Source of the DNA: an uncultured virus (IMG/VR IMGVR_UViG_3300020156_000368)
Taxonomy: Duplodnaviria; Heunggongvirae; Uroviricota; Caudoviricetes
Length of the DNA stretch: 64,000 nucleotides
Direction: 5' to 3' (one strand)
IMG/VR virus record: IMGVR_UViG_3300020156_000368
Part shown: positions 3,577 to 52,562 of the stretch, piece by piece
Position numbering within the stretch: the stretch's first letter is position 1
Layout of the letters: each line of letters opens with the position of its first letter
Notes under the pieces: generated by a model
What the model was told of the DNA's origin: nothing
What the model saw: the letters and a program-made list of their open reading frames with translations, nothing else
The model's database searches: none
Program-made: the position numbers and the translations under genes

Positions 3577-4512
3577 ATGAGAACTAAAGGAACAAACGCC
3601 GAAGTAGGCGTAATTGTTGGACGATTTCAAGTACCCAACTTACATGATGCTCATATTGAGCTAATTAAGAGTGTATGCGATAAACACTCTAGAGTTCTAG
3701 TCTTCCTAGGACTTTCGCAATGTCTCGTTACCAAGAATAACCCTCTTGATTTCGAAGCGCGTAAGCAGATGTTGCTTCAAAGCTTCCCTGATATTAATGT
3801 TTTATACATTAAGGATTGTCAGAGTGATGAAATCTGGAGTCGAAAATTGGACGAGCAGATTCGTGATCTAATCGGTCCCAATCAGAACGCCCTGCTTTAT
3901 GGAAGCAGAGATTGCTTTATCCAATACTACAGCGGCAACTTCCCAACTCAAGAGCTAGAATCTACCACATACATTTCGGGCACGGAAATTCGCAATAGTG
4001 TCGGTAATAAAGTCAAGGCATGTCCTGAATTCAGGGCTGGTGTTATTTGGGCAGCTTATAATCAATACCCAAAGGTGCACACCACAGTTGATGTTGCAAT
4101 CTTCAATGAAGATAAGAGCAAGCTTCTTCTAGCAAGAAAAGCTTATGAGCAAAAATATAGGTTCGTGGGCGGTTTTTCGGTCCCAACTACAACGTGCTTT
4201 GAAGCTGATGCACGTAGGGAGGTTCAGGAAGAGGCTGGAATCGCAATTACTGATCCTCTCTATATAAGTAGCGCTCTTGTTGATGATTGGCGCTACCGTC
4301 ATGAGGGAGATAAGATCAAAACTATCTTGTTCGCAGCAAAGATATTCAGTGGCAGACCGCAAGCTGGCGATGATGTTGCTGAAGTTCGTTGGTTCGCTTT
4401 TGATGGTGATGATAAGAAAAAAGCTCTCGAAGCATTGAAAGAAAATATTGTTGATGAACATAAGCCGTTAGTGGATATGCTAATTAAGAAGATTGATAGA
4501 ATAGTTTTATAA
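3577..4512 (+). CDS. nadM: Bifunctional NMN adenylyltransferase / ADP-ribose pyrophosphatase (NadM-Nudix)
   Basis: VGRFQ...LHDAH, KNNPL, SGTEIR nucleotidyltransferase motifs; Nudix box GG...ARREVQEEAG. Confidence 0.92.
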   Translation: MRTKGTNAEVGVIVGRFQVPNLHDAHIELIKSVCDKHSRVLVFLGLSQCLVTKNNPLDFEARKQMLLQSFPDINVLYIKDCQSDEIWSRKLDEQIRDLIGPNQNALLYGSRDCFIQYYSGNFPTQELESTTYISGTEIRNSVGNKVKACPEFRAGVIWAAYNQYPKVHTTVDVAIFNEDKSKLLLARKAYEQKYRFVGGFSVPTTTCFEADARREVQEEAGIAITDPLYISSALVDDWRYRHEGDKIKTILFAAKIFSGRPQAGDDVAEVRWFAFDGDDKKKALEALKENIVDEHKPLVDMLIKKIDRIVL

Positions 4513-4543
4513 GCAACACCCTTGATTCATCTAGATAAAGATA

Positions 4544-6013
4544 ATGATGGAGTCAAGGCAACAAAAATATGGAAAGATACAGGTGATTCCTATGACTACA
4601 GCAGTTGCAATACAAACAGCCAAAGGGCTGATGAACAATTATATTTTACGCACTGATGCGTACAAACAAACTCACTGGCTACAGTATCCAGATGGAGCAG
4701 AAAGAATTTTCAGCTATCTTGAAAGCCGTGGTGGAGAATACGACGAAACTGTATTCTTCGGACTTCAGTACTATTTAAAAGAGTACCTGCAAGGCGTCGT
4801 CGTCACGCAAGAGATGATTGATCAAGCAGAAGAGATAGTTAATAAAACTTTTATGGGTCAAGCCTTCTTCAACCGAAAAGGTTGGGAAAAGATCGTTAAC
4901 ACTTACGGCGGGAAACTGCCTATCCGCATTAGAGCGGTTGCTGAGGGAACTGTCGTTCCTGTATCGAACGTGTTAATGACCGTTGAAACAACTGTTGATG
5001 ATCCCGACATTATCTTCATTGTCGGCTTTGTTGAAACAATGCTAATGAAGCTTTGGTATCCAATTACAGTAGCTACGCAAAGCTATAAAATCAAAGAAAT
5101 TATTCGCCAGTATGCAAATCTTTGCGGAACCCAAGTAAATCCATTTGCTCTGAATGACTTTGGATATAGAGGCACTTCGAGTGAAGAGAGCGCAGCACTT
5201 GGCGGGGCAGCACACTTGGTAAATTTCGAAGGAACTGACACCACACGTGGCGTTCTTCTCGCAATGAGCTATTATGGTGCTGAAGTAAATGGCTTTTCGG
5301 TAATGGCGGCTGAACACAGCACTGTAACAAGCTATGGTAAAGAGAATGAAGCTAAAGCTTATGCAAAGTTTATGGATGCTTGTCCTACTGGATACCTGAG
5401 CATCGTGTCGGACAGTTACGATTACTACAATGCCGTTGAAAATATCTATGGCAAAGAGCTTAAAGAGAAAATCTTAGCTCGTGATGGCAAACTAGTTGTA
5501 CGTCCTGATAGCGGCTATCCACCTGAGGTCTGTCTAAAGACGCTAGAACTGCTTTGGGAAGCCTTTGGAGGCGAAATAAACGCCAAAGGGTACAAAGTCC
5601 TCAACCCGAAGGTTGGAGTGATCTACGGCGACGGAATCAACGCTCAGATGATTCGTGAAATTCTTGAGACGATCACAAAAGCTGGATTCTCGATTGATAA
5701 CGTAGTGTTTGGCATGGGCGGGGCGCTATTGCAGCAGGTTAATCGTGATACGTGTAGATTTGCTTTTAAGTGCAGCGCCATTAAAGTCGATGGCGAATGG
5801 CGCGATGTATTTAAGCAGCCAAAGACTGACGATGGTAAAAAGTCGAAGCGTGGCAAGTTAGACCTTTGCTGGAACCGATACGACGAAACGTATGTAACCA
5901 GAACTCCAGGAAAATTGGAAAATGGCGACATGCCAGTTATGGAAACCGTTTTTGAAAATGGTGAGATTCTAAAGAATTACACTTTTGATGAAATTCGGGA
6001 AAATACAAATTAA
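4544..6013 (+). CDS. nadV: Nicotinamide phosphoribosyltransferase
   Basis: TDAYKQTH, FFGLQY, DFGYRG, AAEHS, SIVSDSYD, VRPDSG, GDGI, FGMGG, NRDT..FAFK; true start may be 4592 or 4631. Confidence 0.95.
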   Translation: MMESRQQKYGKIQVIPMTTAVAIQTAKGLMNNYILRTDAYKQTHWLQYPDGAERIFSYLESRGGEYDETVFFGLQYYLKEYLQGVVVTQEMIDQAEEIVNKTFMGQAFFNRKGWEKIVNTYGGKLPIRIRAVAEGTVVPVSNVLMTVETTVDDPDIIFIVGFVETMLMKLWYPITVATQSYKIKEIIRQYANLCGTQVNPFALNDFGYRGTSSEESAALGGAAHLVNFEGTDTTRGVLLAMSYYGAEVNGFSVMAAEHSTVTSYGKENEAKAYAKFMDACPTGYLSIVSDSYDYYNAVENIYGKELKEKILARDGKLVVRPDSGYPPEVCLKTLELLWEAFGGEINAKGYKVLNPKVGVIYGDGINAQMIREILETITKAGFSIDNVVFGMGGALLQQVNRDTCRFAFKCSAIKVDGEWRDVFKQPKTDDGKKSKRGKLDLCWNRYDETYVTRTPGKLENGDMPVMETVFENGEILKNYTFDEIRENTN

Positions 6014-7776: not shown

Positions 7777-10700
7777 ATGCGTATTGTCGGTTCTGATAGC
7801 CATGCTCAAAAATTCATTAATAATAGCGGCGGACAACTTCTAGTAGGTCATGTAGTATCAATTGATTCCTCAAACGCTGACTCCAGATATATAAAATTCC
7901 CCACAATTGAAGGTGAAAAATATGTGGTGGGTGTAGTCGCGAGAGTCAGCGAGAATGGTAGCACTGTGTATGTTATTCGCGTTGGATACGGGTTAGTATA
8001 TGTTGATAATACAAATGGTGCTATTGCTATTGGCGATAAACTAATTGCAAAAGGTAATAATGGTGGGCTTGCGGTACGCTGCAATGTAATTCCGCCTTCA
8101 GAAGAATACTCGATTGGTATCGCTTTAGAAGCATATGATAGTCCAACAGCAGGGCTTATTAAAGTTGACCTCACTTCTGTCACTTCAAGTACGGCTGGTC
8201 TTGCATCCGCTGGCGGATTAAGTGCAGTCACAAGTGTTAATAATCAAATTGGAGAAGTAGAGCTTGATTATACTCATGTAGGAGCCGCTGCGGAAACCCA
8301 TGATCATGGCATAAGCGATATTACTTCTTTGCAGACTATACTTGATGGTAAAGCATCAACTTCCCATACTCATTCTTTTTCTGAAATTACAGGAAGTCTT
8401 CTGCTTTCTCAAGGCGGAACAGGCGTAACCGCTGTAGGTGAACCTGGGCAAGTACTTGCTACTAATACTGCTGGGACTGGCACTGAATGGATTGACATGG
8501 GAAGCGGCAGTGGTGATGTAATTACTACTGCAAATAATGTATTTACTGGAACAAACACTTTTAGAAATATAAATCTTAACATGAGCGGTTCTACGTTGCT
8601 CGCGCCACGCGAATTGACATTTTCTAATTTTGGAGATGGCAATGGTTGGAGATTGATGGATATGCTTCAGGCTGGCTGGGCGCAAAGAAACCAAATTTAC
8701 AGCTATTGGGCACTAGAACTTTGCGGAAATCAAAGAGGTTCAATTCCAGAGTTTATCCCAGGTGTGTTATCAGATGCTGCTGTTCATGTTAAAAATGGAT
8801 ACGCCTCCTCTCCTGTTTTGGTTGTTAGCGGGGCGGCAAGCCAGTCTGGAAATCTTCAAGAATGGAGAAATAGCTCAGGGACGGTGCTTGCTAGTATTTC
8901 TTCGACTGGAGCGCTTTCTGCTACTGGACTATTGACCACTTCAGGGAATAATACTTTTACTGGAACAAATACATTTAATAATACAGTAACCATCAATGGA
9001 GTTAGGGCAACTACTGATTTAGATACATTTGCTCAATATCTAGAACTAAGATCAACAACTGCCAATAGAGATACGTCAATTAGACTTATTCCAAATGGCA
9101 ATGGAGACAGAGCATTCTATTCAGCTTTTAATACAGACTGGTCTGTAGATTCTACGAACTATCAGGTGGTTGATTTTGGTGTTCATTGGGATCAAGCCAC
9201 TGCTATTTTACAATCCTCTGCTGGCGGAACCTACTCTCGTCTCCCATTGGCATTAAGTGCCGATGGGACGTTAACTCAGCTAGTGCTAAATAATACTGGG
9301 TCAATTTCCTTTGGTGGAAATGTTATGGTAAGCGGAGACGGAAGCAGTCAAGCATCTCCTAGGCTATTTGAAGTTGATTTATCTAGCGGTGAGGCTCTAA
9401 GAGCATTTAACGCATTTCAGTTAGGGTGGGGAACTTCTCTTCAAATTACAAGTTATTGGGGTGTTGAGATACATGGAAATCGTCAGACAGGAGGAGTTCC
9501 TGCCTATCGAACGGGTGTTTCTTCAGATGCAAGCTTGCTGGTAGCTGGATATACAACTACTGCCCCTGTAGTTGTTGTTCAAGGTGCAGCAAGTCAGTCG
9601 GGGAATCTTCAAGAATGGAAAAACAGCACAGGCACTGTGCTCGCATCTGTTTCGGCAGCGGGTAGCTTTGTTGGTTCTGGTTCTGGATTAACTTCTATAC
9701 CAGATTCTGCTTTAACAACTAACATTGCTAAATTGAACGGAACTAATATCTTTACTGGAAGCAATTCCTTTAACGGCGGTACAAATACGCTTAACGTTGG
9801 TTCGGGAAATAATTATACAACGTATGATTATTTTAATGTACGAGCGGGTTCTGGAAATTCTGGTTCACTTGGACTATATGATGGTGCTGGTAACAGAGTC
9901 ATTATGCAATCAGCAGTAGCTTCTAGTATAACTAATGCGGGTGATGCAATATTTGCTGCTTTTGCATCGGGAAGTCGATTTAGAATACTTGTGAATGGAC
10001 AGACTGCTTCAAATGAGCAAGCCATGCATGTTAGTTCTAATGGTGTTGGAATTAACAAACGCTTGAGGGTTGGCTATAATGCAGAACCAACCCCTCCATC
10101 ATCTGGTGCTTATATACAAGTTTCTGCTTCCGAATCGGCATCTTCGGCAACTCTCACAGGTCAATCCGTTTCATGGACAGCAACGCACACAACAGGAACC
10201 ATGACTAATGCCTATGGCGTGCTTATAAATGCTCCAACAAAACCAGGAGCAGGCGTGATTACCAATGCATACGGATTATATGTTGCTGCTCCAACAGTTG
10301 CTACCAATAATTACTCTGCATATTTTGCAGGAACAACTCACTTTGCAGGAAGCATCACCTCATCTGCGAGCAATACATGGACTGGAACAAATACCTTTTC
10401 AAATAATGATGGGATAATAATAAAAGACGCAGGGGGTGGCGGACTGAAAATTTATCCTAACACCTTAGATGGACCACGGCGCGTTTGGAATTTCTATCAA
10501 CAAAGCGTAAACAATGGAATTACTTATGAGCTTGTTCCAAATGGAACTGCCAATTTCTCAAGATTCACTGCTAACGGCTCAGATGTTATGGCAGTGCCTG
10601 CAAATTTTAGAAAATTTGATTTAGGTTTTAATAACAGCGGGCAATTAGAAATTCATACGCGAGCAGGCGGAACTGGCGTAACAGACGACATAAGATTTAT

Positions 10701-11619
10701 GTGGAACAACAGCGAAAAGGCGCGGCTTTCCACATTAGGTTTTGAAGTTGGAAAGTTGTTTTCAAAGTCTGGAGATACGGCAACAGGTTACACGCAAGCG
10801 CAAATCCAATTAGGATATAATGGGAATACCTATCCTCATTTTATCCACTCTCGTCATAGTCCAACATCTGATCAAAATGCAATAGACTTTTATACCTGTG
10901 ATGGAACAAACGCTGGTGTGTATCCAACCAATGCTGTGCATAATATGACAATGCGTGGTGGCAAGATTGGTATTGGTGGAGTAACTTCTCCTACAACCGC
11001 CCTAGAAGTAAGTGGGACCGTTACAGCAACCGCGTTTGTAGGAGATGGTTCTGGTCTTACTGGAATAAGTGGAGGTTCGGGAGATTCTCCTATTGGATTA
11101 CATACAATATACTATCCCGCTAACGCTATGTTCCCAAGAACAGATAATGGAGCAGGCGCTCTTGTATACGTCCAAGTTAACTCAACTGGTCCAAACTTCC
11201 CAGCCCTTCTATTTAACGGAACAACAGATTCTTATGCTCAATTTACTGTAGCAATGCCAAAATCATGGGATGAGTCAACAGTTACGGTTCAGTTTATATG
11301 GTCTCATGCTTCTGGAGCAACAACATATAATGTTACATGGGCAGCAAAGGCAGTATGTATTGGGAATAGCGCGTCCATGAATACTAGCTACGGCACGGCA
11401 GTTACAGTTGCATCAAGTGGTGGAACGGCAGACACTTTATATACATCGGCTATTTCATCTTCACTAACAGTGGCAGGAACTCCTAATTCAGGCGGAGTTA
11501 CCTATATTAGCTTTGAGATAAATAGAGTCACTGCCGATGCATCGGATGATCTTGATGTAGATGCTAGACTTCACGCAATAGCTATCTTTTACTCAACAGA
11601 TGCTGCAACTGATGATTAA
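7777..11619 (+). CDS. Tail fibre / virion structural protein
   Basis: 1280 aa, Gly/Ser/Thr-rich; VTSVNN..GEV, HDHGISDITSL and HTHSFSEI tail repeats, NTFTGTNTF repeats, internal duplication. Confidence 0.8.
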   Translation: MRIVGSDSHAQKFINNSGGQLLVGHVVSIDSSNADSRYIKFPTIEGEKYVVGVVARVSENGSTVYVIRVGYGLVYVDNTNGAIAIGDKLIAKGNNGGLAVRCNVIPPSEEYSIGIALEAYDSPTAGLIKVDLTSVTSSTAGLASAGGLSAVTSVNNQIGEVELDYTHVGAAAETHDHGISDITSLQTILDGKASTSHTHSFSEITGSLLLSQGGTGVTAVGEPGQVLATNTAGTGTEWIDMGSGSGDVITTANNVFTGTNTFRNINLNMSGSTLLAPRELTFSNFGDGNGWRLMDMLQAGWAQRNQIYSYWALELCGNQRGSIPEFIPGVLSDAAVHVKNGYASSPVLVVSGAASQSGNLQEWRNSSGTVLASISSTGALSATGLLTTSGNNTFTGTNTFNNTVTINGVRATTDLDTFAQYLELRSTTANRDTSIRLIPNGNGDRAFYSAFNTDWSVDSTNYQVVDFGVHWDQATAILQSSAGGTYSRLPLALSADGTLTQLVLNNTGSISFGGNVMVSGDGSSQASPRLFEVDLSSGEALRAFNAFQLGWGTSLQITSYWGVEIHGNRQTGGVPAYRTGVSSDASLLVAGYTTTAPVVVVQGAASQSGNLQEWKNSTGTVLASVSAAGSFVGSGSGLTSIPDSALTTNIAKLNGTNIFTGSNSFNGGTNTLNVGSGNNYTTYDYFNVRAGSGNSGSLGLYDGAGNRVIMQSAVASSITNAGDAIFAAFASGSRFRILVNGQTASNEQAMHVSSNGVGINKRLRVGYNAEPTPPSSGAYIQVSASESASSATLTGQSVSWTATHTTGTMTNAYGVLINAPTKPGAGVITNAYGLYVAAPTVATNNYSAYFAGTTHFAGSITSSASNTWTGTNTFSNNDGIIIKDAGGGGLKIYPNTLDGPRRVWNFYQQSVNNGITYELVPNGTANFSRFTANGSDVMAVPANFRKFDLGFNNSGQLEIHTRAGGTGVTDDIRFMWNNSEKARLSTLGFEVGKLFSKSGDTATGYTQAQIQLGYNGNTYPHFIHSRHSPTSDQNAIDFYTCDGTNAGVYPTNAVHNMTMRGGKIGIGGVTSPTTALEVSGTVTATAFVGDGSGLTGISGGSGDSPIGLHTIYYPANAMFPRTDNGAGALVYVQVNSTGPNFPALLFNGTTDSYAQFTVAMPKSWDESTVTVQFIWSHASGATTYNVTWAAKAVCIGNSASMNTSYGTAVTVASSGGTADTLYTSAISSSLTVAGTPNSGGVTYISFEINRVTADASDDLDVDARLHAIAIFYSTDAATDD

Positions 11620-17261: not shown

Positions 17262-17340
17262 GCAAGTGTCGCATAGTGGTCCATTGCACCTGCCTTCCAA
17301 GCAGGAATGATCGTGGGTTCGAATCCCACCACTTGCTCCA
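17262..17340 (+). tRNA. tRNA-Gly(UCC)
   Basis: GCAAGTG/CACTTGC acceptor, CCTGC-CTTCCAA-GCAGG anticodon arm, GTGGG-TTCGAAT-CCCAC T-arm, U73, encoded CCA. Confidence 0.95.
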
Positions 17341-17806: not shown

Positions 17807-19195
17807 ATGAGAATAGCTATTGCCAAGTTGTCCGAGCACGTGGGCAAAGAAGTAAATATTGCTGGATGGGTAAACGTTCGCAGGGATCATGGGAAATTGA
17901 TTTTTGTCGAACTGCGTGATAGCACTGGACTAATTCAGTCAATTATTACCCCAGCTTCCGAGAAAGCCTATGAAATTGCAACTCAAGTTCGTAACGAATG
18001 GGTTGTGTCAGTTAAGGGAATCGTTAAAGATCGTCCTGCCAAGATGGTTAAGAGCGGTGTTATCAATGGTAGCATTGAGCTTGAAATCACTGATATTAAT
18101 ATCTTGAACGAAGCTATGGCTCCAGGAATCGACATCCATAATGACGGTTATGGCATCTTGGAAGAAGTTCGCATGGCTCAGAGACATCTTGATTTGCGTC
18201 GTTCTCGCATGCAAAGAAATCTTCGCAAACGTTCTCAGGTTAATTCGATTATTCGCAAATACTTGGGTGAGCGCCAGTTTATTGAAGTTGAAACTCCATT
18301 ACTCACTAAATCCACACCAGAGGGTGCAAGAGATTTTGTTGTTCCTAGTAGGCAGCAGTATTCTTCGTTTTATGCACTTCCTCAGTCTCCGCAGCAATAT
18401 AAGCAGCTACTAATGGCTTCTGGTGTTGAGAAATATTATCAAATAGCGCGTTGTTTTCGCGATGAAGGCTCTCGTGCTGATCGTCAGCCAGAATTTACAC
18501 AGCTTGATATGGAATTAGCTTTCACTGAAAGAGAAGAAATTCTGAGGTTAAACGAAAGCCTTTTAATTCAGGTTGTTCGCTCTGCTTTCCCTGAAAAAAA
18601 GATTCAATCAATTCCATTTCCGCGCCTCACCTATAAAGAGGCAATTGAGAAATATGGAACAGATTGTCCTGATTTGCGAGAAAACAAAAGTGACCCGAAT
18701 GAGTTGGCATTTTGCTGGATAGTGGACTATCCGTTTTTCAAAGTAGATAGAAAAACAGGTAATTTTACATTTACTCACAATCCCTTTTCTGCGCCAATTC
18801 CTGAGCATGAAGAGATGTTTGCGAAGCGCGAAAATATACTGGAAATTACAGCTAATCAATACGACATTGTATTAAATGGATTTGAAATTGGTGGCGGAAG
18901 TATTCGTAACCATCGACCTGAAAATCTTCAAGCTGTATTTGAAATCATGGGATATTCCAAAGAGCGCATAATGCAAAATTTTGGTCATATGTTAACAGCC
19001 CTTAGCTCAGGCGCTCCGCCACATGGCGGTATTGCGTGGGGGATTGACAGAGTAATGTCCATTCTTCTAAACGAACCTAGTATTAGAGAAGTTATTGCTT
19101 TTCCCAAAACAGGTGAAGGTTATGATTTATTCATGAGTGCTCCATCGCAAATAGATAAAACCCAGCTAAAAGAACTAGGCATTACATTTAAGTAG
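17807..19195 (+). CDS. aspS: Aspartyl-tRNA synthetase, bacterial type lacking the GAD insertion
   Basis: OB fold RRDHG..F..LRD; TPEGARDF, LPQSPQQYKQLLM, FRDE..RADRQPEFTQLDME, GGGSIR, PPHGGIAWGIDR. Confidence 0.95.
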   Translation: MRIAIAKLSEHVGKEVNIAGWVNVRRDHGKLIFVELRDSTGLIQSIITPASEKAYEIATQVRNEWVVSVKGIVKDRPAKMVKSGVINGSIELEITDINILNEAMAPGIDIHNDGYGILEEVRMAQRHLDLRRSRMQRNLRKRSQVNSIIRKYLGERQFIEVETPLLTKSTPEGARDFVVPSRQQYSSFYALPQSPQQYKQLLMASGVEKYYQIARCFRDEGSRADRQPEFTQLDMELAFTEREEILRLNESLLIQVVRSAFPEKKIQSIPFPRLTYKEAIEKYGTDCPDLRENKSDPNELAFCWIVDYPFFKVDRKTGNFTFTHNPFSAPIPEHEEMFAKRENILEITANQYDIVLNGFEIGGGSIRNHRPENLQAVFEIMGYSKERIMQNFGHMLTALSSGAPPHGGIAWGIDRVMSILLNEPSIREVIAFPKTGEGYDLFMSAPSQIDKTQLKELGITFK

Positions 19196-23861: not shown

Positions 23862-25043
23862 ATGATGAGAAACAACCTTAAACAGTTTATAATTGGATGC
23901 GAAGAAGTTACTCCTATTCAGGAGCTTCAACTAAAGTTATCCACTCAAAACAGACTTCGCATAAAATACAGCTTGGATGTTCGGCATAATTCATTGCACC
24001 TTGGACATTTAGCTTGCCTACAAAAGCTTCGTCACCTACAAGAATTAGGGCATACGATTTTTATCGTCTTTGAAGATTATTTTGCCACAATTGCTGATCC
24101 AAAATATCGCAAAGGCACACGCTTTGGTGCAATTGGCAGACAGCAAGCTGCCTCTAACACTGCGGAACTGCAAAAACAAATCGATCTTTTTCTCGACAAA
24201 GCCAAGTATAAAATTTTTTATACTCGCAGCACATTTGATGGGATGGACGTTTCAAGGCTTTTAAATATTCTTGGAAATGTTACGGTTTCTCAGCTTTTGG
24301 AGCGCGATAACTTTTCTAAGCGTTTTAAAAGTCATACACCTATTGCAATGAATGAATTTCTAATTCCTCTGATGAAAGCTTATGACAGCTATAACGTTAA
24401 TGCAGATGTAGAACTTGGTGGCGCTGACCAAAGAGCAACGATGTTGCTTGGTAGAGAAATTCAACGCCACCATGATCATAATCCTCAAGTTGTTATGACA
24501 ATGCCTTTGCTTATTGGTACTGACGGAGCAAAAAAGATGCATAGGTCATTTAATAACCATATTGATATAAAGGATTCTCCAACTAATACGTTAGGGAAAA
24601 TAATGAGTATCCCCGACGATATGATTGAAAACTATATGCGGTATATTCTTGGCTTTAGTAATGATGATATTAATGACGTTACTAAAGAAGTTACGAATAT
24701 GCGCGATATCAAGATGGTTTTGGCTATGGGTATTGTTGCTTCGATCCATAATAAAAATGCAGCATTGATTGCACGTGACGAGTTCGAGGCAGTTTGTAAA
24801 ACTAAAACCTTTCCAGATAATCCTCAAAGAGTAAAGATTAACGGAGCGCGAGTCCATGGTCTTAGTGAGCTTTTGACTGCAATGGGGGTGTGTTATTCAA
24901 ATCGCGCTGCTCGTAAGCTAGTAAAAGAAAATGCGCTCCACTTCTATGAAAAACCAGAAAGAGCGACAGAATCTTTTGTCCCTAAAGGGAATTATAAATT
25001 TAGAGTTGGGAAGAAAAGATATTACGAAGTTGAAGTTTCGTAG
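23862..25043 (+). CDS. tyrS: Tyrosyl-tRNA synthetase-like protein with a degenerate active site
   Basis: LHLGH, TVSQLLERDNF, DVELGGADQ, GTDG.KKMHRS, GKIMSIPD, S4-like tail ending RVGKKRY. Confidence 0.85.
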   Translation: MMRNNLKQFIIGCEEVTPIQELQLKLSTQNRLRIKYSLDVRHNSLHLGHLACLQKLRHLQELGHTIFIVFEDYFATIADPKYRKGTRFGAIGRQQAASNTAELQKQIDLFLDKAKYKIFYTRSTFDGMDVSRLLNILGNVTVSQLLERDNFSKRFKSHTPIAMNEFLIPLMKAYDSYNVNADVELGGADQRATMLLGREIQRHHDHNPQVVMTMPLLIGTDGAKKMHRSFNNHIDIKDSPTNTLGKIMSIPDDMIENYMRYILGFSNDDINDVTKEVTNMRDIKMVLAMGIVASIHNKNAALIARDEFEAVCKTKTFPDNPQRVKINGARVHGLSELLTAMGVCYSNRAARKLVKENALHFYEKPERATESFVPKGNYKFRVGKKRYYEVEVS

Positions 25044-26463
25044 TATCTGATAACTTTTTGATACTCCAGCCACTCGCCATTGTTTGTGCGGGTGCTTTTT
25101 TTAATACTGAATATAATGGAAAGTATTTCGGATTGGAGCGAGCCATACTTTTAATTTCATCAAGAATTTGGCTTCTTATTAATGGTTCCGTAATCATTCC
25201 AAAGAAAGCTACAACTTCATCTTGAGAATATGAGTCAGGCATTAAAAGTTTTTTAAGCAGCGCATTCGCAATGTTCTCAATTCCAATCGTTTGAGAAATT
25301 TCTTTACGTTGAGAATATCCAGCAGATAAATTATTGCTAATATATATCAATTGATTTAAATCAAATCTGTTAAATTCGTGCTTCGCTAATTTCCAAGGAC
25401 ATGTGCGAGCTAAATCTGCGCAAGTCGCGATATAGGTATTAAACATTCTAAATGAATTTCTTACAATGAGAGAAATCATATCCTCAAAATTATCCGAGGG
25501 ATTTGCAGTCTGATCGTAAGCTTGTAAAATTTGATTTACAACTGGAACTACTTCATCAACGTTTCCCCAGTCATACAGCAGTAGATCATGGAGATTTTTA
25601 GGAATGTAAAATACAATATCTTTATCTGCATCCTTTCCGCCGCTATAGGTATCGCTATGAAGAGAGCCGCGCCTTCTATACTGTCCAATCGGCAATACAG
25701 GCTGATGCTTATTAACCCAGTTTTGAATTTGATCAATGAAGCCTTCAGGTGCGTTTCCATAAGTTGAAGATGTTTCTGGCGCAGCCCACAGCTTACCATC
25801 CTGGGTCTCTAAAGCGCGAATCCAAACGCGAGATAGAGCACGATCAAGATTATTAACATCCTGTTTGCGCACCAAATATGCAACAAATCCACCTTCTTTA
25901 ATTTCAGGAAATAATTCTTTCCAACACTGCCCTCTTTCTGCTTCCATGCAGCTAGTCCAATTCTTATTTGTACTCATGTGGAAAACATCATGGGGATTTT
26001 GGCTGAAAACAATTACTAAGTCGCCAGCAAAAACAGATGTTCGTTGGGAGTCGTGCATAAATTGTTTATATAGACCCTCTAGCTTTGCTTCACTAAAATC
26101 AGGGTCTCCCGCTGGCTGTGCTAATATTTTTTTCTTTATTTTTTGGAAAGCAGTAGAGATTCTTTCTTCTCGATTATATTGAGTATTTAAACAGTAGCCT
26201 TTTTCATAATCGGTAATTTCATAACCATATTTACTAAATAGTGCAACAATACTTGCGGGGGCTTCTGTTTTCTTTTCGGTACGATTAAATGGAATAACCA
26301 GACGATCTTTGCCGCCAAACCATTGATTAAACGGTTTAGGATTTTGTGCGTACAGTTGTTCTACTTGTTGTCTATATTTAGCATCGTACTCTTCTGGTGA
26401 TAACGCTGCCCAGCTAAAAAGCAAGCCGATCTTTTGATGTAGTCCAATAGATAGTAGGTTCAT
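25000..26463 (-). CDS. Paralog family A protein (PH..MS..W.SC..GG..AYL..RVWIR domain)
   Basis: SQNPHDVFHMS...WTSCM...GGFVAYL...SRVWIR...HSDTY; start moved to ATG 26463 downstream of the class II motif. Confidence 0.8.
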   Translation of the reverse strand: MNLLSIGLHQKIGLLFSWAALSPEEYDAKYRQQVEQLYAQNPKPFNQWFGGKDRLVIPFNRTEKKTEAPASIVALFSKYGYEITDYEKGYCLNTQYNREERISTAFQKIKKKILAQPAGDPDFSEAKLEGLYKQFMHDSQRTSVFAGDLVIVFSQNPHDVFHMSTNKNWTSCMEAERGQCWKELFPEIKEGGFVAYLVRKQDVNNLDRALSRVWIRALETQDGKLWAAPETSSTYGNAPEGFIDQIQNWVNKHQPVLPIGQYRRRGSLHSDTYSGGKDADKDIVFYIPKNLHDLLLYDWGNVDEVVPVVNQILQAYDQTANPSDNFEDMISLIVRNSFRMFNTYIATCADLARTCPWKLAKHEFNRFDLNQLIYISNNLSAGYSQRKEISQTIGIENIANALLKKLLMPDSYSQDEVVAFFGMITEPLIRSQILDEIKSMARSNPKYFPLYSVLKKAPAQTMASGWSIKKLSDTTKLQLRNIFSSQL

Positions 26464-26558
26464 TGTTTGACTCTGATTAGTTTTTGGTTTGATGTGTATA
26501 AATTTATTGCTATTATCATGCAATAAATCCTTGCTACGCATGTATACAAGATATCAAC

Positions 26559-34079: not shown

Positions 34080-35672
34080 ATGTTGTTTGTTGATGAATTG
34101 ACCGAAATTATTGATAGAGCGATCCATGATAGTGGATACTTTAACGATAGTGCCGATCTTATTCAATGCCAAAATGATACAGCATTTGGCGAATACAAAA
34201 CCAACGTGGCAATTAGGATTGCCAGCAAAGAGCAACTAAATCCTGTTTCGCTTGCGGTACAAATAGCTCAAAACATTGAACTGTTTGAAATAGGTTCGGC
34301 TACTGTTCTTGATGGATTGATTTATATCAAGCTAAATCCAGGGTATATTGAGAGAAAGCTGGCGCTGGCATGTCATACTCCCAAACCCAACAAAAGGCAA
34401 CGTATCATCGTTGATTATTCTGGTCCAAACACTGCATATCCGATGCGTGCAGAGTCGTTGCGTTCATCATGTGTTGGCGATGTTATCGCTAATATCCTAG
34501 AACATCAAGGGCATGAAGTAAAAAGGCAAAACCATCTAAAAGATTTCAGCATTCAACTTGGAATGCTGATGCAGCAATTAAATTTCTCTACTGACTTTGA
34601 TGCTAAAGAGTTAGAAAAAGAATACACCATTGCTGTTGAACGCTTTAGAAAAGATAAAGAATTTCAAAAAGAAGCGCATAAACGCTTGCTTTATCTTCAA
34701 AACGGCGGAAAGCGTGAACTTCATCTTTGGTCTGCTATTATGGATGTTTATTTGCCGCAGTTTAACAATCTATACAAGCGGCTAGGCATTAGGCTTAATC
34801 AAAAAGATGAGAAGAGTCAAAGTCAGTATGCACCCTATTGCGGCATGATCGTAACGGAATTGATTACCAAACAGATTGCCGTTGGGAGCTACGGGGCAGT
34901 GGTTTGTCTTACGAAAGACAAAACCCCCATTGTCATTAGAAATGAAGATGGAACGTACACTCCTGCAACCTTTGATCTTGCTGCGATGTTTTATCGTAGT
35001 AAGAACTTAGGCGCTGATAGAATTATTTATGTAAGAGATAAAGAGCAGGTCAAATTCTACAATCAATTATTTCAGATTGCAACGAGCGCAGGATGGTTTT
35101 CAGGCACTAAACCTTCCATTGTTCCAGTGGGCATCATGCTTGGGAAAACTCAGATTAAATTATCAGAATTTGTAGAAGAAGCAATATCATCAGGCGCTCT
35201 TTATTCCAAAAAACTACCTGCTCATGTAGGCATTGGAGCTATTAAATATTCTGCTCTGGCTCATGAATATGGAGATTTTGTTTTCAATTGGGATAAAGCG
35301 CTTTCCAACCAAAGCAACTCTTCACTTTATATTCAAAGTGTTTATGCTAGTATTTGTCACTTATTAAAAGAAAATCTCAGTAGCGACAAGCCGACAAAGG
35401 CAGGTCCAATGAATTTGGAAAAGGTTGCCGAAATGCGACTTGCTTTAAAGTTATTGAGATTCCCTGAAGCAGTTTCAAAAACAGCAAGTGAATTAAATAC
35501 CCAGCACCTTTGTACTTACTTATATGAAGTTGCTCAGGCTTATAATAACATGAGATATCGTTATGAAATTTTAGGGCATGCAGGACGTTTAAAACTTGCA
35601 GCACATACGCTTGATGTACTAGCAGAAGGAACTTATATTTTGGGAATTACCACACCAGAGGCAATGGTATGA
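34080..35672 (+). CDS. argS: Arginyl-tRNA synthetase-like protein with HIGH motif lost
   Basis: FGEYKTNVA N-domain, VDYSGPN..LRS..GD..ANIL, DLAA..YR, VGIGAIKY, FNWD, Y.Q..YA.I, LCTYLYEVA, LGI..PE.M. Confidence 0.88.
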   Translation: MLFVDELTEIIDRAIHDSGYFNDSADLIQCQNDTAFGEYKTNVAIRIASKEQLNPVSLAVQIAQNIELFEIGSATVLDGLIYIKLNPGYIERKLALACHTPKPNKRQRIIVDYSGPNTAYPMRAESLRSSCVGDVIANILEHQGHEVKRQNHLKDFSIQLGMLMQQLNFSTDFDAKELEKEYTIAVERFRKDKEFQKEAHKRLLYLQNGGKRELHLWSAIMDVYLPQFNNLYKRLGIRLNQKDEKSQSQYAPYCGMIVTELITKQIAVGSYGAVVCLTKDKTPIVIRNEDGTYTPATFDLAAMFYRSKNLGADRIIYVRDKEQVKFYNQLFQIATSAGWFSGTKPSIVPVGIMLGKTQIKLSEFVEEAISSGALYSKKLPAHVGIGAIKYSALAHEYGDFVFNWDKALSNQSNSSLYIQSVYASICHLLKENLSSDKPTKAGPMNLEKVAEMRLALKLLRFPEAVSKTASELNTQHLCTYLYEVAQAYNNMRYRYEILGHAGRLKLAAHTLDVLAEGTYILGITTPEAMV

Positions 35673-37692: not shown

Positions 37693-37722
37693 AAAGAGCG
37701 GCTTTCGAGCCGCTCTTTTTTT
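37691..37722. terminator. Bidirectional terminator between convergent genes
   Basis: AAAAAGAGCGGC-TTTCGA-GCCGCTCTTTTT. Confidence 0.9.
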
Positions 37723-40700
37723 ACATCATCTTCTTAAGCTTCAAATATTCGGCACATGCAAGCCTTGCTATATTTGTGTAGCTAGCCATAGCAAAACCAT
37801 TTTGATCTTGCTGCGTAGCTGCTGGAGCACCCAATCCCTTTTGCGTCATTTCTGCCTGAAAATCAGGCGGACCCAATTCTATAAGAAAGTTAGCTAATTC
37901 TTGGGTTTTTGCATCTTGGAAGGATCGGAGTAGTTTTAGTTTTGGCTCAATGTAGAATAACCACTTTCCATTGCCTACATTTAGCTGCTTAAATATTTGT
38001 TTCAGTGATTCAACCGCAACTTCATCATAGCCCAATTGATTTAATCTTTCTTGGCTAATCATATTTTTTACAGTCATGTATTTATTAAGGTGATCAAGTG
38101 CACGACTTATCGAAATTCGATATTTAGCTGCGTAATTATAGTCATTTTGGAAATTATTTAAATGAATTTCTATATTTTGTCCTATTTTGGGAGCGGCTAG
38201 TGGAGTATCGGATAGTAGAAGAAAGTCACCCAAATCAAGATGTCCGTAAAGCTCTTCATCACCCAAATAGCGATTAAAGAAGCTTTCCTTGGTGTTTTGA
38301 TCTACTGATGTAGTATCAATCATATTCGTCAATTCTTTTAACGCGCCCGAATTCCGATGCATTATTACTCCAGTGTAGTCTGCACCTTCGCCATTTGCAT
38401 ACATATTCATAAATTCAACAAGAGATTGCTGAACTTCTGGAATATAGAATAAATCTCTCATAATCGGGTTGCTTTCAAAAAAGGAAATGAGCATAACAAA
38501 TATCCCAGGATTTTGTTGAGCCATTTGGATAAAATTTGGCTTCAGTGCTTCAACGAAATCGCCGCCAATCTTCCTATAAAGATCAACAAACGTCTGTAGC
38601 ATTTCACTCATAGTGCTTGCTATTCCGCCAGCTTTAAATGACGTAATGCTTTTTTGGAAATTATTACCAATGCCAGCAATTACTTGAGAAGCAAGCCCAT
38701 GAACTCCCTGCTCAACATATTGGGCAAAGTTTGGGTCTTGCTGCATTTTTTCTTTTAATAGTGGATAAACTTTTTTATGATTTAATCCTTCTAGTAGCAA
38801 TGGGCTTGATTGCTGATTTTTATAAAATTCATCAAAATCTTTCATAAAATAAGCAAGCAACTGTTCTTCCATAAAATCCCTTGTTATTAGCATGTTGCTG
38901 TTAGCTCTTTCAATTACATTAAAGCTATAATTTAAAGAGTTGCGCTGGATCAAATCAGGCAAGATTGTCACAAGAAACTTATTTTGCAACGCACTTCGAA
39001 ATTTATTGGCTGATGGACTTGAAGATGCGACAGCAAAAGCATAACTTCCAGTATCTAATAGGCGATTAAAAGATTCCCAATCTCTTGCTTGTTCATTAAT
39101 TATTTGCACAATACGGTTTTCCTGAAGATTCATAATTTCCTGAGGAAGCATATCTTGATATTGTTTATAAGTAATGCCATACATACTAAAGGTTTCTTTC
39201 GCGTCTCCAGGTGGAAGATTTAAAATCACCTCAGAAAGCCTATCTTTGAATATTTGAAGTTGCTCTTCGTTTAGTGCTGGCAATATGACGTTTGGAAGCA
39301 TGCGAGTAGCACCATTGTTATTTATGTATAATAGGAAATTTCGATCATCTGAAGTGAGAATTGTATTAACTAATATTTCAAACGTAGTCTGAACAGACTG
39401 CTTAACATCTTCGTATACATCTAAATTGTAATATTTCTTTAATAATACTTTTGCTTCACTGCGATCTTCTTCATATTTCTGTCTTTCAAATCCAAGATGT
39501 GAGAAGAATCTTACAGCGTGCTTGTGCACGTCTATCTCTGTGAATAGTTGGATATCTTTGCGAATCTTTTCATATGAAGGCGGATGACTTTTAAAAAGAT
39601 TTATTACGTTCTTATTATATATTGGACTCTCATTAAAAGTAAAGCTAATTTCATTGCCTTTAATTTTGTAAGATACCCGATTCGCAAAATTCGCAATATC
39701 TTCTGCGGTAAATCTTGCATTTAATGCTGGATAATGGAATTGAAATTTCCTAAGCGCATTAAATTTCTTATCAATATCATCAGTAGTCGTATGCATTGGC
39801 AAAGCATCTTGTATAAAATATCTTTTAAATTTAGAAACTTCTTTATCTAGCACTTCGATATTTTGTGCAAAGTAAGCCTTAGCTTGAGGAGTAAAAAACT
39901 GATCTAAATAATTGGTCACATAATCATTAAAATTTTCGGTAAGTGCAGAAAAATCATCAACAAGTATATTATGAGTAGAGCCTAGAGAATCACTGTAATG
40001 TCCGCCACTTTTATTATAGGTGCTTTGAGGGATTTCAGGTTGTTTTTCAGCCAGATAACTCTTTATAGTCGTCAATACATCATCTTTTAGAAATTGAAGA
40101 GCCTTAATACCGTATAATCTATCCTCAGGGATAAGAGTGTAGTGAGTAGGGTCGGCGGGATGCGTAAATAATCTAATCCATACTCTGCCAAGTGGTTTGC
40201 TTAATGTTTCGGTATCATCTTTAGTAGTTAAATAAGCAGCACATCCGCCTTGCTCAACTTCATCAAAGAGGTCTTCGTGGTGCATTCCTACGCCCAGCGT
40301 CATACAAGAGTTTTGATCGCACTCCATGGTGCCTCTTAGCGGATTGCCTTCGTAATATTTGCTCCAATAACGGTCATAGCTCATTTTGGCAATCTGATGA
40401 GGGTCTTGAGTTAGAACAATTACAAGATCATTAATATCAATCCCAAAAGCTTCCAAGTTTTTATATTCTTTGCCATAGCTTCCTTTTAGGTTAGCGACGG
40501 AATCGAACATAGATTGATACATTCCTTCGCGTTCCTTAATCATCGTAGCAATTTCTTGGATTTTGTTTAGCTTATCATCTTTGGAAATATTTTTATCTTG
40601 TTCAGTTTGACTGCGTTCTTGTTTTAATCTCTTGATTTCTGAATCATTTAAAATAGCCTTTTTTAGCGCAGAAGACCATGGAATAACTCTTCCGTATTGA

Positions 40701-41014
40701 TCCTGTACGGTCATTGCTTTAGGGTCGATGTTGGAGAAGCCCAAACCACTTAAGGTTGTGACAATTTCGCTTTGAGTTTTTGTCTGAAGAGGCAAAACGA
40801 TATTAGCTTTTATTTGCTGAACGTTGTGGTATAGATTTCTATCAAGATCAGTTTTTGATTCTGGGAACCACGGATCAAGCATGTTTTTGCGCCTCATATA
40901 CAAGTTGTTAACTCGTGTGCGCCATTGTTCATCATATTCCTGATCAGAAGCAAAAGTGTGCAAAAGACTCAAGTGCGTGTTGTTTGTAATTTTCTTGAGA
41001 TTTAAAAAAGGCAT
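37721..41014 (-). CDS. Paralog family A protein, 1097 aa
   Basis: TQDPHQIAKMS...W...NSCMT..G...GGCAAYL...GRVWIR...YSDS; long helical C-terminus. Confidence 0.85.
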   Translation of the reverse strand: MPFLNLKKITNNTHLSLLHTFASDQEYDEQWRTRVNNLYMRRKNMLDPWFPESKTDLDRNLYHNVQQIKANIVLPLQTKTQSEIVTTLSGLGFSNIDPKAMTVQDQYGRVIPWSSALKKAILNDSEIKRLKQERSQTEQDKNISKDDKLNKIQEIATMIKEREGMYQSMFDSVANLKGSYGKEYKNLEAFGIDINDLVIVLTQDPHQIAKMSYDRYWSKYYEGNPLRGTMECDQNSCMTLGVGMHHEDLFDEVEQGGCAAYLTTKDDTETLSKPLGRVWIRLFTHPADPTHYTLIPEDRLYGIKALQFLKDDVLTTIKSYLAEKQPEIPQSTYNKSGGHYSDSLGSTHNILVDDFSALTENFNDYVTNYLDQFFTPQAKAYFAQNIEVLDKEVSKFKRYFIQDALPMHTTTDDIDKKFNALRKFQFHYPALNARFTAEDIANFANRVSYKIKGNEISFTFNESPIYNKNVINLFKSHPPSYEKIRKDIQLFTEIDVHKHAVRFFSHLGFERQKYEEDRSEAKVLLKKYYNLDVYEDVKQSVQTTFEILVNTILTSDDRNFLLYINNNGATRMLPNVILPALNEEQLQIFKDRLSEVILNLPPGDAKETFSMYGITYKQYQDMLPQEIMNLQENRIVQIINEQARDWESFNRLLDTGSYAFAVASSSPSANKFRSALQNKFLVTILPDLIQRNSLNYSFNVIERANSNMLITRDFMEEQLLAYFMKDFDEFYKNQQSSPLLLEGLNHKKVYPLLKEKMQQDPNFAQYVEQGVHGLASQVIAGIGNNFQKSITSFKAGGIASTMSEMLQTFVDLYRKIGGDFVEALKPNFIQMAQQNPGIFVMLISFFESNPIMRDLFYIPEVQQSLVEFMNMYANGEGADYTGVIMHRNSGALKELTNMIDTTSVDQNTKESFFNRYLGDEELYGHLDLGDFLLLSDTPLAAPKIGQNIEIHLNNFQNDYNYAAKYRISISRALDHLNKYMTVKNMISQERLNQLGYDEVAVESLKQIFKQLNVGNGKWLFYIEPKLKLLRSFQDAKTQELANFLIELGPPDFQAEMTQKGLGAPAATQQDQNGFAMASYTNIARLACAEYLKLKKMM

Positions 41015-41083: not shown

Positions 41084-42829
41084 TTATTGAGCTACTGCAA
41101 CTGCTCCAAGACGCTTCTTCTTTGTCTTTTGCTTAACACCCAGCATAACTCGCTCAAATTTAATTGCGTACACATCCCACAGTCTGTTTAATATACTATC
41201 AAACTGTTCATCATGAACACCTGGAATACAGGATTTGACCGCTGTTTGACCGATTTCTCGAACTTGCTGCATAAGCATTGGTGACATAATGATATTATCG
41301 CTTATATCACCATTCCAAAGAACAGAACCATTGCTAGCCAACTGTTTTATATAATAGCTAGCGTCATACCCATATGGGCGATTGGATTTTGAGCCGCCAA
41401 TACCTGAAGAGACCTGTTGCAACAATAGGCTTATACCATAGGAATAATCAAAATGGAATTCCAGCTTCGAATAGACGTTTTTTAATTTCTCAATATACTT
41501 AAAGAAGTTCTCTACCTGGTTAGCTCCCATATAACCAACGTTAGGCTGCTGAAAATACCACTCTGCCCACTGGTAAATATTGGCTTTGAACGCTTCTGCA
41601 TACTCTGCATTGTCCTGAATGCCGTTTGAAATTGCAGGACGAAGAAAATCACGTGGAAGAATGCCACCAGTATTTTGATAATACCCGCCATAATTACCGA
41701 ACAAGTTATATCCGCTTGCGCGTAGGATAGCACAAGCATTCTTTGAGATATAGTCGTAATCATCATGGCGAATAAATTTCATTATTTCGCCATAACTATC
41801 ACTATATGCCGCGCCACATCTTTTGTAATTGCCGCTCACATATTCTGGCTGATGAGCTTCAATGTATTCCTTGATCTTGTCTGCAACTTCAGCTTTTAGA
41901 TTGGTCACGATTTGTGCGCAATAAAAGCCATTCTCCACAACAAGTTTGGGGATGTCGTTTTCTTCATGTCTAAATAATCTTATCCAAACACGTGCGAGTG
42001 GACGATGAAGCTCTACATCATCGCCTGTTGTAAGATATGCGACACATCCACCGTTGCGAAGTTCAGAAAATACGTTGCGATATATGCCGCGATTATCGCC
42101 AAGCGTTAAACAGGATTTTTGAGGTGATTCCAAAGCGTCTTTAAGTGGATTGTCACAATTTGATCCCCAGTATCGATCAAAACTCATGCATGCCATCTGA
42201 TGAGGGTCTTGAGTTAGAACAATAATTAGATCATCTAAGTCGCGATCAGTATCACTGCGTCGTTTAGCAGACGCTGCGTTTGCAAAGCGGGAGAAATCAT
42301 CCAGTACTGTTTTAAATTTAGCGTCAATTGCTTTAATATTTTCACGGACTTTGTTTATTAAGACAGTACGTTCATCCAAAGAGAGAGATTTATCAATCTG
42401 AATCTTTTCAATCTCTTCTTTTAGAGGCTTCTGTTCAGTATGTTTAATTTTAGTGATGATGGTTGCGAATTTATAGGTGTTTGTATCGCCAGCTTTGCGA
42501 AGTATACAATTTCTATGGTCGGCAATCCAACCGTTTTCTACTGAGTAGCCATGCTTTGTAAAAAATCCGACAACTTTATCCTTGTGCTTACTCTTAAATG
42601 GGATAATTACATCTGCCCGCATTCTCATGGGCTTTTTGCCATAAAGTCGTGGCTCATATTTTTCAACTTCTTGAGGAAACCAAGGATCGAGAAAATATTC
42701 TCTTTTACCGTAAGCTTTAAGTACCTTTGGTACATATCTGGCTAAATAACGCTTTTGCGAATTAGTCATTTGATGATATGTAATTCCAGCAGGAACGGGT
42801 TTAACTTCAGAAGAAGTTTTAGTTGTCAT
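41084..42829 (-). CDS. Paralog family A protein, 581 aa
   Basis: TQDPHQMACMS...KSCLT..G...GGCVAYL...ARVWIR...YSDSY; shares LDPWFP with its neighbour. Confidence 0.85.
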   Translation of the reverse strand: MTTKTSSEVKPVPAGITYHQMTNSQKRYLARYVPKVLKAYGKREYFLDPWFPQEVEKYEPRLYGKKPMRMRADVIIPFKSKHKDKVVGFFTKHGYSVENGWIADHRNCILRKAGDTNTYKFATIITKIKHTEQKPLKEEIEKIQIDKSLSLDERTVLINKVRENIKAIDAKFKTVLDDFSRFANAASAKRRSDTDRDLDDLIIVLTQDPHQMACMSFDRYWGSNCDNPLKDALESPQKSCLTLGDNRGIYRNVFSELRNGGCVAYLTTGDDVELHRPLARVWIRLFRHEENDIPKLVVENGFYCAQIVTNLKAEVADKIKEYIEAHQPEYVSGNYKRCGAAYSDSYGEIMKFIRHDDYDYISKNACAILRASGYNLFGNYGGYYQNTGGILPRDFLRPAISNGIQDNAEYAEAFKANIYQWAEWYFQQPNVGYMGANQVENFFKYIEKLKNVYSKLEFHFDYSYGISLLLQQVSSGIGGSKSNRPYGYDASYYIKQLASNGSVLWNGDISDNIIMSPMLMQQVREIGQTAVKSCIPGVHDEQFDSILNRLWDVYAIKFERVMLGVKQKTKKKRLGAVAVAQ

Positions 42830-48115: not shown

Positions 48116-48802
48116 ATGAACGCCATCATATCTAAATATCCAAGAACTCCGCATCTGTTTAGAGACAGATCAGATGCTAGAAGCATGGACATAGAACAGT
48201 CTTTGGCTTTTATCAATAACCCTAACTTGGTTGTTGAAGAGAAGCTAGACGGAACGTGCATTGCGATTATGTTTGAAGATGGCAAGTTGACCTTTTACAA
48301 CAGAGGAAGCCAGATTTCAGATCATCCACAATACGACTTGTTCAAAACGTGGGCGTTCTCAAAGAGAGACGATTTTTGGGACATTCTTGGTAATGATTTT
48401 ATAATGTATGCAGAGTGGTTATACTGTAAGCACACGATACATTATACTAAACTACCTCACTACTTTATGGAATTTGATGTGTGTGATAAGGATGATGGAT
48501 TTTTTCTATCTACCAAATATAGGCGAGAAGCCTTATGTGGAGCCTTATTTTCAGTTCCTGTTCTCCATTACGGAGCAATAGAAGATGAACAAACACTGAA
48601 TCTTTTGATGGGGCGTTCTCTTTTTGGGAATACTTTATCTGAAGGATTGTATTTAAAAATTGAAGAGGAAGGGGAAGTCATTGCGCGTGCTAAGTACGTT
48701 CGCCCTGACTTTATCAAGACTGCTTCCGAATCAAAGCACTGGCAGCACAAACCTTTAGAGTATAATGGATTGCGTGACGGAGTAAATATATGGAAACCTT
48801 AA
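48116..48802 (+). CDS. ATP-dependent RNA ligase family protein
   Basis: KYPRTPHL, motif I EEKLDG, YAEW...H.I.Y, EFDV, EGLYLK, AKYVR. Confidence 0.88.
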   Translation: MNAIISKYPRTPHLFRDRSDARSMDIEQSLAFINNPNLVVEEKLDGTCIAIMFEDGKLTFYNRGSQISDHPQYDLFKTWAFSKRDDFWDILGNDFIMYAEWLYCKHTIHYTKLPHYFMEFDVCDKDDGFFLSTKYRREALCGALFSVPVLHYGAIEDEQTLNLLMGRSLFGNTLSEGLYLKIEEEGEVIARAKYVRPDFIKTASESKHWQHKPLEYNGLRDGVNIWKP

Positions 48803-51036: not shown

Positions 51037-51086
51037 GTGTGTAGCCTCCAATTTAGAGTACTACACACACAATTTATTATTCATTT

Positions 51087-52481: not shown

Positions 52482-52562
52482 TTTTAATCCTCTGTCTTCT
52501 AGTACCAATAACTATAGCGTATATTCTATGAATAAAGTTAATTGCCTAGTGTATTCAAGGAC

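Follow-up and report, generated by a model that had tools for sequence, protein, structure and literature searches.

The tyrosyl-tRNA synthetase (TyrRS)-like gene found in the window, which is the whole stretch of 64,000 nucleotides of uncultured-virus DNA that we analysed, has its tyrosine-holding residues replaced and its tRNA-gripping residues kept, and this points to tRNA binding rather than charging. The explanation that we prefer, although we would put it at a little under an even chance, is that the gene encodes a non-charging TyrRS-like dimer that binds tRNA-Tyr and shields or withholds it during infection.

Regarding the identity of the gene, the protein scored 157 bits against Pfam tRNA-synt_1b and 221 bits against TIGR00234 tyrS over residues 15-392, where the NCBIfam cut-off is 113.8. 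Its nearest solved structures, from Acinetobacter, Helicobacter and Thermus, belong to the TyrZ type, and profile and fold together indicate a class Ic fold and, in addition, an anticodon-binding domain and an S4-like one. The sequence-only reading had claimed that both of these domains are retained. This holds for the anticodon-binding domain, and for the S4-like domain by profile and fold, without a Pfam S4 match; actually, Pfam S4 matches neither this protein nor its intact sister P0004. The codon use is like that of the other genes of the window. At its 3'-end the gene overlaps a convergent gene by 44 bases (25000-25048 region), and its stop codon lies within a hairpin of 14 pairs (25017-25048).

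We also considered whether the changes could be artefacts. A Logan contig from one soil metagenome run, with a depth of 15.5, is identical to the gene in every letter, and on this ground an assembly error was rejected as the cause of the changes, although that run, the only one in which the DNA was found, is probably the source sample and hence gives no independent confirmation. At position 31460 (intergenic, between 31388 and 31497) this contig lacks one letter of the window. Codon reassignment was rejected too, because the changed residues draw on 14 different codons at 15 sites, the window makes use of each of the three stops and the aspartyl-tRNA synthetase (AspRS) gene reads normally.

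Table 1. Positions in the window of the TyrRS-like gene, its motifs and domains, and the other genes related to tRNA charging.
Feature	Positions	Strand	Basis or remark
TyrZ-type TyrRS-like gene, full length, 393 aa, pseudo-TyrRS candidate	23862..25043	+	ORF, profiles, fold
GxDPT changed to SLDVR (G36S, P39V, T40R; D38 kept)	23970..23984	+	alignment
HIGH motif intact as HLGH, residues 46-49	23997..24008	+	alignment
Pocket-lining G70 and T73 changed to bulky E71 and F74	24072..24083	+	alignment; S. aureus residue list
CP1 region (residues 125-171), predicted to form the homodimer interface	24234..24374	+	1/8 conserved CP1 columns changed
Y169/Q173/D176 helix: I168 and K172 replace amino-group ligands; phenol-OH ligand D175 kept	24363..24386	+	
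GGADQRAT: GGxDQ kept, R191 = T. thermophilus R198; F192A, N193T	24417..24440	+	
KMHRS in place of the KMSKS loop; first Lys retained, Arg for the second	24534..24548	+	
Helical anticodon-binding domain	24582..24806	+	D252 = T. thermophilus D259, kept
S4-like C-terminal domain, divergent yet folded, 49% identical to sister P0004	24807..25040	+	
tRNA-Gly(TCC), sole tRNA in the window	17262..17340	+	
Short AspRS, intact class II motifs, internal control	17807..19195	+	
ArgRS-like gene, 530 aa, open frame, changes in all domains	34080..35672	+	
ArgRS-like HVGH changed to RAES	34446-34457	+	

Residues were numbered by alignment to the B. stearothermophilus TyrRS (2ts1), and the T. thermophilus equivalents were taken from a separate alignment. 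The numbering that the sequence-only reading had made by eye was in agreement with the 2ts1 alignment: S37 corresponds to G36, R41 to T40, I168 to Y169 and K172 to Q173. The same reading had described three motif changes, and all of them were confirmed: GFDPT into SLDVR by the 2ts1 alignment and by the comparison with homologues, the loss of Tyr169 and Gln173 as amino-group ligands by I168 and K172 being found in 0/358 homologues, and KMSKS into KMHRS at residues 225-229. Mutations of T40, Y169 and Q173 have large effects in the B. stearothermophilus enzyme. Furthermore, we found several changes that had not been listed before, namely E71 (G70), F74 (T73), A78, Y82, T121 (N123), T124, A192 and T193 (N198). 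Eleven residues (S37, V40, R41, E71, F74, T121, I168, K172, T193, H227 and R228) are each found in none of the 358 homologues, and all eleven sit in or around the catalytic cleft. These substitutions are thus absent from the cellular TyrRS compared. Y169 is invariant in 358/358 homologues and Lys at the Q173 position occurs in none of them, whereas the KMSKS loop is variable in some representatives (KMGK, KMSQ), so that KMHRS alone would say little. In total, 8 of 19 core positions are changed in the TyrRS-like protein, and at most 4 in any other of the 149 representatives. In three of the sequence features that define the active family, namely KMSKS, the alpha-amino ligands and GxDPT/S with T40, the protein thus departs from the norm.

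Nevertheless, a considerable part of the cleft is kept. D39 (D38), H46 and H49 (H45 and H48), D79 (D78), R83 (K82), R87 (R86), D175 (D176) and Q190 (Q195) are in place, and the equivalents of D194 and K230 are kept as well. The phenol-OH ligands are retained as K35 and D175, the Lys at the Y34 position being the family state, and among the alpha-amino ligands D79 is retained and Y169 and Q173 are lost. The ATP site had been described as rewired; it is partly altered, but HLGH, GGxDQ and the K230 equivalent are still there. The assignment of Y169, Q173 and D78 as amino-group ligands follows the description in PMC1934993, and the membership of the altered positions in the pocket follows the residue list of S. 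aureus TyrRS given in a docking paper (PMC9105953). Regarding the tRNA, R198 of the T. thermophilus enzyme reads A73 and D259 reads G34, as PMC1934993 describes them, and both readers are kept here, as R191 and D252. At the level of the alignment, then, ligand loss goes together with the retention of the tRNA readers.

The closest relative is the sister P0004, encoded on a contig of 1.7 kb, which is 49% identical and scores 399 bits (the next match scores 264 bits). Both proteins form one clade with a support of 0.999. P0004 keeps DPS, HLGH, Y169, Q173, D176 and KMSKS and, since the sister is intact, the altered site arose on the branch of the window lineage, out of an intact clade that is phage-like. 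This branch has a length of 0.74, versus 0.42 for the sister. The nearest cellular TyrRS are only 35-40% identical to the TyrRS-like protein.

We searched extensively for a second altered member. Two protein searches, each with 8000 candidates scored, found P0004 as the sole clade member and no third, nor did a third member come out when the 50% representatives were searched exhaustively with a profile. Among viral contigs, one scan found TyrRS in 0/63 loci and another in 2/9 loci, both ordinary TyrRS. A pattern scan of metagenomes gave ordinary TyrRS in 6/9 loci, none above 35% identity, and a pattern scan of GTDB gave 0 matches for the altered TyrRS; the coverage of these DNA scans is limited, as they did not return the window's own motif. 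In the ESM Atlas we found ordinary TyrRS and ArgRS clusters only. The altered TyrRS is therefore a singleton, present on one contig, and the altered state was not seen in any further genome searched.

As for the phages themselves, four TyrRS of cultured jumbo phages, out of 36 records hit, were aligned, and this survey, of the kind which the sequence-only reading had called for, showed that the substitutions are absent from them. The TyrRS of Serratia BF, Yersinia fHe-Yen9-03, Cronobacter GAP32 and Xanthomonas XbC2 belong to another bacterial TyrRS type with HIGS at the HIGH motif and, unlike the window protein, keep GFDPT, Y169, Q173, D176 and KFGKS. An uncultured huge phage (record G002, of 532,729 bases, with 59 tRNA matches) encodes a TyrRS of a different lineage, 27% identical to ours and seen at L068:1363-2535 (-), the same as L087:3001-4170; it has Val at the Y169 position, keeps DPT, HLGH, Q173, D176 and KMSKS, and had no relative in the viral contigs. 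Loci L096, L097, L098, L101 and L103 (records G002 and G004) hold short Leu-, Val-, Met- and Arg-like enzymes, named by eye, in open frames of 432-602 aa and with intact HIGH-like and KMSKS-like motifs. In two uncultured huge phages, seven class I synthetases other than TyrRS have such motifs, as judged by eye.

In order to describe the pattern of change, we used an alignment with 144 of the 267 homologues, in which long fusions, partial matches and near-duplicates were left out. In the columns that are at least 90% conserved, residues foreign to the family occupy 17/64 positions of the TyrRS-like protein versus 2/64 of the sister, and in the less conserved classes the two proteins have 3 versus 4 (of 44), 11 versus 8 (of 89) and 22 versus 23 (of 191). 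Foreign residues are found at 10/27 positions of the active-site class versus 10/81 of the other conserved columns (Fisher p=0.007), an optimistic value because the class was fixed after the alignment had been viewed. All 12 listed positions that face the tRNA or lie nearby, R191 and D252 among them, are compatible with the family (0/12 foreign). When the changes were polarised, we found 18/64 in the Rossmann halves and 3/28 in CP1, anticodon and S4 domains together (class test p=0.053). Changes seen only in the window protein versus only in the sister were 32 versus 16 in the Rossmann halves (p=0.03) and 9 versus 4 and 15 versus 11 elsewhere; however, the domain contrast in this relative-rate count was not significant (p=0.66). 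The polarised share of changed sites over the conservation classes (0.27, 0.16, 0.35, 0.38 and 0.35) was fairly flat.

Regarding selection, in a neutral simulation the frame of the TyrRS-like gene stayed open in only 2 to 9 of 1000 runs (P 0.002-0.009); the simulation included substitutions only, and indels would lower this share further. Since an open frame is improbable under neutral decay, the gene must be under some purifying selection, and the retained positions suggest that this selection acts on tRNA binding. At least two nucleotide changes are needed for 11/18 of the key changes, versus 7-9% expected, which suggests that the altered state may be old.

The AlphaFold2 model of the protein had a pLDDT of 94 and a pTM of 0.87, and its best Foldseek matches were Thermus TyrRS-tRNA complexes (TMq 0.81-0.83). 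The predicted homodimer of residues 1-315 scored 0.58 versus 0.01 for the best control, although a resemblance to solved TyrRS dimers may be the source of this score. The contact agreement was at least 69% and the pLDDT at least 82, and in the benchmark the homodimer mark was attained by 20/30 solved pairs and 1/23 single chains. The tRNA-Tyr binds across the TyrRS dimer, as described in PMC11758952.

With these models in hand, the reading that we prefer can be put as follows. The TyrRS-like protein is predicted to fold and to form a canonical dimer. K172 and F74 would occupy the places of the substrate ammonium and ring, respectively, and owing to them tyrosyl-adenylate would not be formed; from the residue list of PMC9105953 we infer that E71, F74 and K172 plug the tyrosine pocket. 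The dimer would then clamp tRNA-Tyr across both subunits, and the clamped tRNA may be shielded from nucleases or else withheld from the host TyrRS in order to tune translation during infection. The loss of activity, the binding of tRNA and the role in infection are likewise what we infer. Against a non-charging protein, an enzyme that lost its activity long ago would not have needed to keep the equivalents of all of HLGH, D38, D78, R86, D176, D194, Q195 and K230, and the singleton status, the non-significant domain contrast, the absence of a tRNA-Tyr gene from the 64-kb window and the tyrosine codons, which are not avoided there (4.45% of 15,099 codons), also count against it.

The window holds a second altered class I synthetase, the ArgRS-like gene, which had been called degenerate, and rightly so, as its HIGH motif and its KMSKS loop are absent: besides the change of HVGH, GDWG has become KDFS and a deletion has removed the loop equivalent to KMSKS. 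The protein keeps 71/118 conserved columns, versus 95-118 in full-length homologues, with 17/43 conserved columns changed in the anticodon domain and 4/7 in the N-terminal domain. Foreign residues amount to 26/89, 17/89 and 35/146 in three conservation classes, and the frame stayed open in 0/1000 neutral-decay runs. The closest matches are 34% identical, and no relatives were found in viral contigs or among the true phage records listed. The claim that both genes represent a recurring strategy was not supported, because we found no second such TyrRS, the nearest relative of the first has an unaltered site, and in the ArgRS-like protein the erosion extends to the domains that bind tRNA. As this erosion reaches every domain, its selective pattern is unlike that of the TyrRS-like gene, and a shared strategy would be hypothetical. 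The broader idea that class I synthetases have turned into non-canonical tRNA handlers here, the TyrRS-like protein as a protecting tRNA-Tyr clamp or rerouter, perhaps in a heterodimer with the host TyrRS, or as a non-amino-acid ligase, and the HIGH-less ArgRS as the second case, is one that we hold only tentatively, at about one chance in three.

An intact AspRS was said to lie nearby and it does, with its class II motifs kept; on these grounds a generally fast evolution of the window enzymes was rejected for AspRS. This AspRS lacks the large insertion typical of bacterial AspRS. It shares 55% of its residues with an AspRS from cell-like DNA that we take to be CPR-like; with two huge-phage AspRS the identity is 44-46%. 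The promoter scans of the window stayed at chance level, and among the 20 repeat families listed there was no upstream repeat shared by the synthetase genes.

Several other explanations have to be weighed against the clamp. Both class I synthetases could have lost charging after a horizontal acquisition and be drifting under weak selection, which would remove only truncating or misfolding changes, so that there would be no selected tRNA-binding function. We regard this as rather unlikely, although the longer branch of the window protein compared with its sister, the flat share of changed sites, the non-significant domain contrast, the erosion of the ArgRS-like gene everywhere and the fact that both genes are singletons are all in line with it. 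It fits badly with the open frames, which are improbable under neutrality for both genes, with the retained tRNA readers and CP1, and with the multi-nucleotide changes, which suggest an old altered state. Alternatively, the ATP chemistry may have been kept and the protein may load tRNA-Tyr, or some other acceptor, with a carboxylic acid that has no free alpha-amino group. A hydroxy acid or keto acid of the 4-hydroxyphenyl kind would be an example, and K172 would stand in for the ammonium charge. The alpha-amino ligands are gone, yet K35, D175, HLGH, GGxDQ, D79, R87 and K225 are kept, and T40R and K233R could presumably still bind phosphate. An evolved hydroxy-acid TyrRS of M. jannaschii reportedly carried a Gln to Arg change at the position equivalent to Q173. 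There is an engineered precedent (PMC13577130, PMC11441406): once five active-site residues had been randomised, an evolved M. jannaschii TyrRS accepted p-hydroxy-L-phenyllactic acid (PMC13577130). However, G70E, T73F, G36S and N123T at pocket positions should crowd out the aromatic ring, no substrate or acceptor gene was recognised beside the TyrRS-like gene, and we found no conserved family with this pocket. Thus, a rewired ligase of this kind appears distinctly unlikely to us.

We give little credence to a weakly active or promiscuous TyrRS, in which compensating changes would preserve tyrosylation at a level useful to the phage. The score above the tyrS cut-off and the intact HIGH motif would agree with such an enzyme, and the Val of the huge-phage TyrRS (L068/L087) indicates that the Y169 position can vary in phages; nevertheless, among the 358 homologues Y169 is invariant and the Q173 position never holds Lys, and the number of core changes is at least twice that of any other representative. 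Even less probable, in our opinion, is a dead subunit that pairs with the host TyrRS. It might poison the host enzyme, or it might contribute its own anticodon and S4 domains, in which case the host active site would charge a different (phage) tRNA. The interface is predicted to be kept, the tRNA reaches over both subunits and in a linked dimer one mutant subunit can be dominant-negative, as described in PMC11758952, and the trypanosomatid TyrRS is a natural pseudo-dimer of an active and an inactive half according to PMC9437257. Against this pairing stand the low identity to the nearest cellular TyrRS and the lack of a phage tRNA-Tyr in the window.

Concerning the genomic context, the window encodes NAMPT, NadM-NUDIX, PTH2, R2K ATP-grasp, RNA ligase, HD-kinase, HNH and PcfJ, and several such kinds of genes are discussed for jumbo phages in PMC7824862. 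No ribosomal genes were found among the 53-58 ORFs scanned, and neither a capsid nor a terminase gene was recognised in the window. The gene convergent to the TyrRS-like gene (25000-26541, -) matched 28 phage records; the 10 of them that are listed have lengths of 253-636 kb. Judged by this gene content, the window appears to be jumbo phage DNA. The same convergent gene, whose matches include the jumbo phages Dickeya JA29 and Pseudomonas Lu11, shares a common core with two paralogues (37721-41014 and 41084-42829, all on the minus strand; pairwise E 5e-18 and 2e-51), and the trio had no Pfam, PHROG or NCBIfam match. Other genes of the window are a NAD salvage pair of NadM-NUDIX and nicotinamide phosphoribosyltransferase (3577-6013, +), an RNA repair pair of RNA ligase and HD-kinase (48116-49929, +) that lies 23 kb from the TyrRS-like gene, and a PTH2 peptidyl-tRNA hydrolase (1727-2194, +), which is another tRNA-related function. 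Split CoaB-like (DFP) and CoaC-like flavoprotein genes lie on either side of an M23 peptidase gene (50398-51051 and 51936-52508, -) and could possibly represent phage coenzyme A biosynthesis. A tail-fibre-like protein of 1280 aa (7777-11619, +) has internal repeats of 35-89 nt.

When compared with known systems, the protein resembles the TyrZ-type TyrRS (PDB 1h3e/6byq/6bqy; Thermus, Helicobacter, Acinetobacter) in architecture and fold, with a TMq of up to 0.83, and shares with them Lys at Y34, HIGH, D176, Q195 and the A73 and G34 readers; its predicted dimer would likewise run through CP1. However, it differs from them in the replaced equivalents of Y169, Q173, T40, G36, G70, T73, N123, N198 and S232/K233. 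The presence of synthetase genes in a jumbo-phage setting is shared with other jumbo and huge phages; Al-Shayeb et al. (PMC7162821) describe up to 15 aminoacyl-tRNA synthetases per huge-phage genome, which are proposed to charge phage tRNAs and presumed active. A full-length class I body is also found in halobacterial LeuRS2, Sulfolobaceae LeuRS-I and the inactive half of the trypanosomatid TyrRS, for which PMC9437257 describes lost or reduced charging, kept tRNA affinity and an unresolved function. If the preferred reading holds, the TyrRS-like protein would work like LeuRS2 or the trypanosomatid dead half, and the trait of LeuRS2, catalytic residues lost and tRNA-facing ones kept, is seen here as 10/27 versus 0/12 foreign residues. 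Nevertheless, those proteins are conserved in cells, as paralogues that accompany an active copy, whereas the TyrRS-like gene is viral, stand-alone and on one contig.

A connection with the retron Ec78 PtuAB had been mentioned as well. PtuAB does degrade tRNA-Tyr, as described in PMC11555353, but nothing in the window ties the TyrRS-like gene to it. The counter-defence against PtuAB of retron-Eco7 (Ec78) and the protein considered here might have tRNA-Tyr as a common target (PMC11555353), but that counter-defence is an over-expressed tRNA, unlike a protein shield, and there is no retron link in the window. A search at the level of titles and abstracts found no paper on inactive phage synthetases, and the supplementary tables of PMC7162821, in which huge-phage synthetases are listed, could hold similar cases.

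In annotations and in the literature, phage aminoacyl-tRNA synthetases are treated as functional enzymes for the charging of phage tRNAs. The TyrRS-like gene passes the curated tyrS cut-off without residues that are invariant in the family, and therefore such annotations can hide pseudo-enzymes. The intact sister P0004, at 49% identity, is a ready matched control. If tRNA-Tyr is bound without being charged, a phage would here be using a protein to guard or regulate a host tRNA, beside the known routes of tRNA supplement and RNA repair; and if a non-amino acid is activated, the enzyme would be a natural counterpart to the engineered synthetases that change the backbone.
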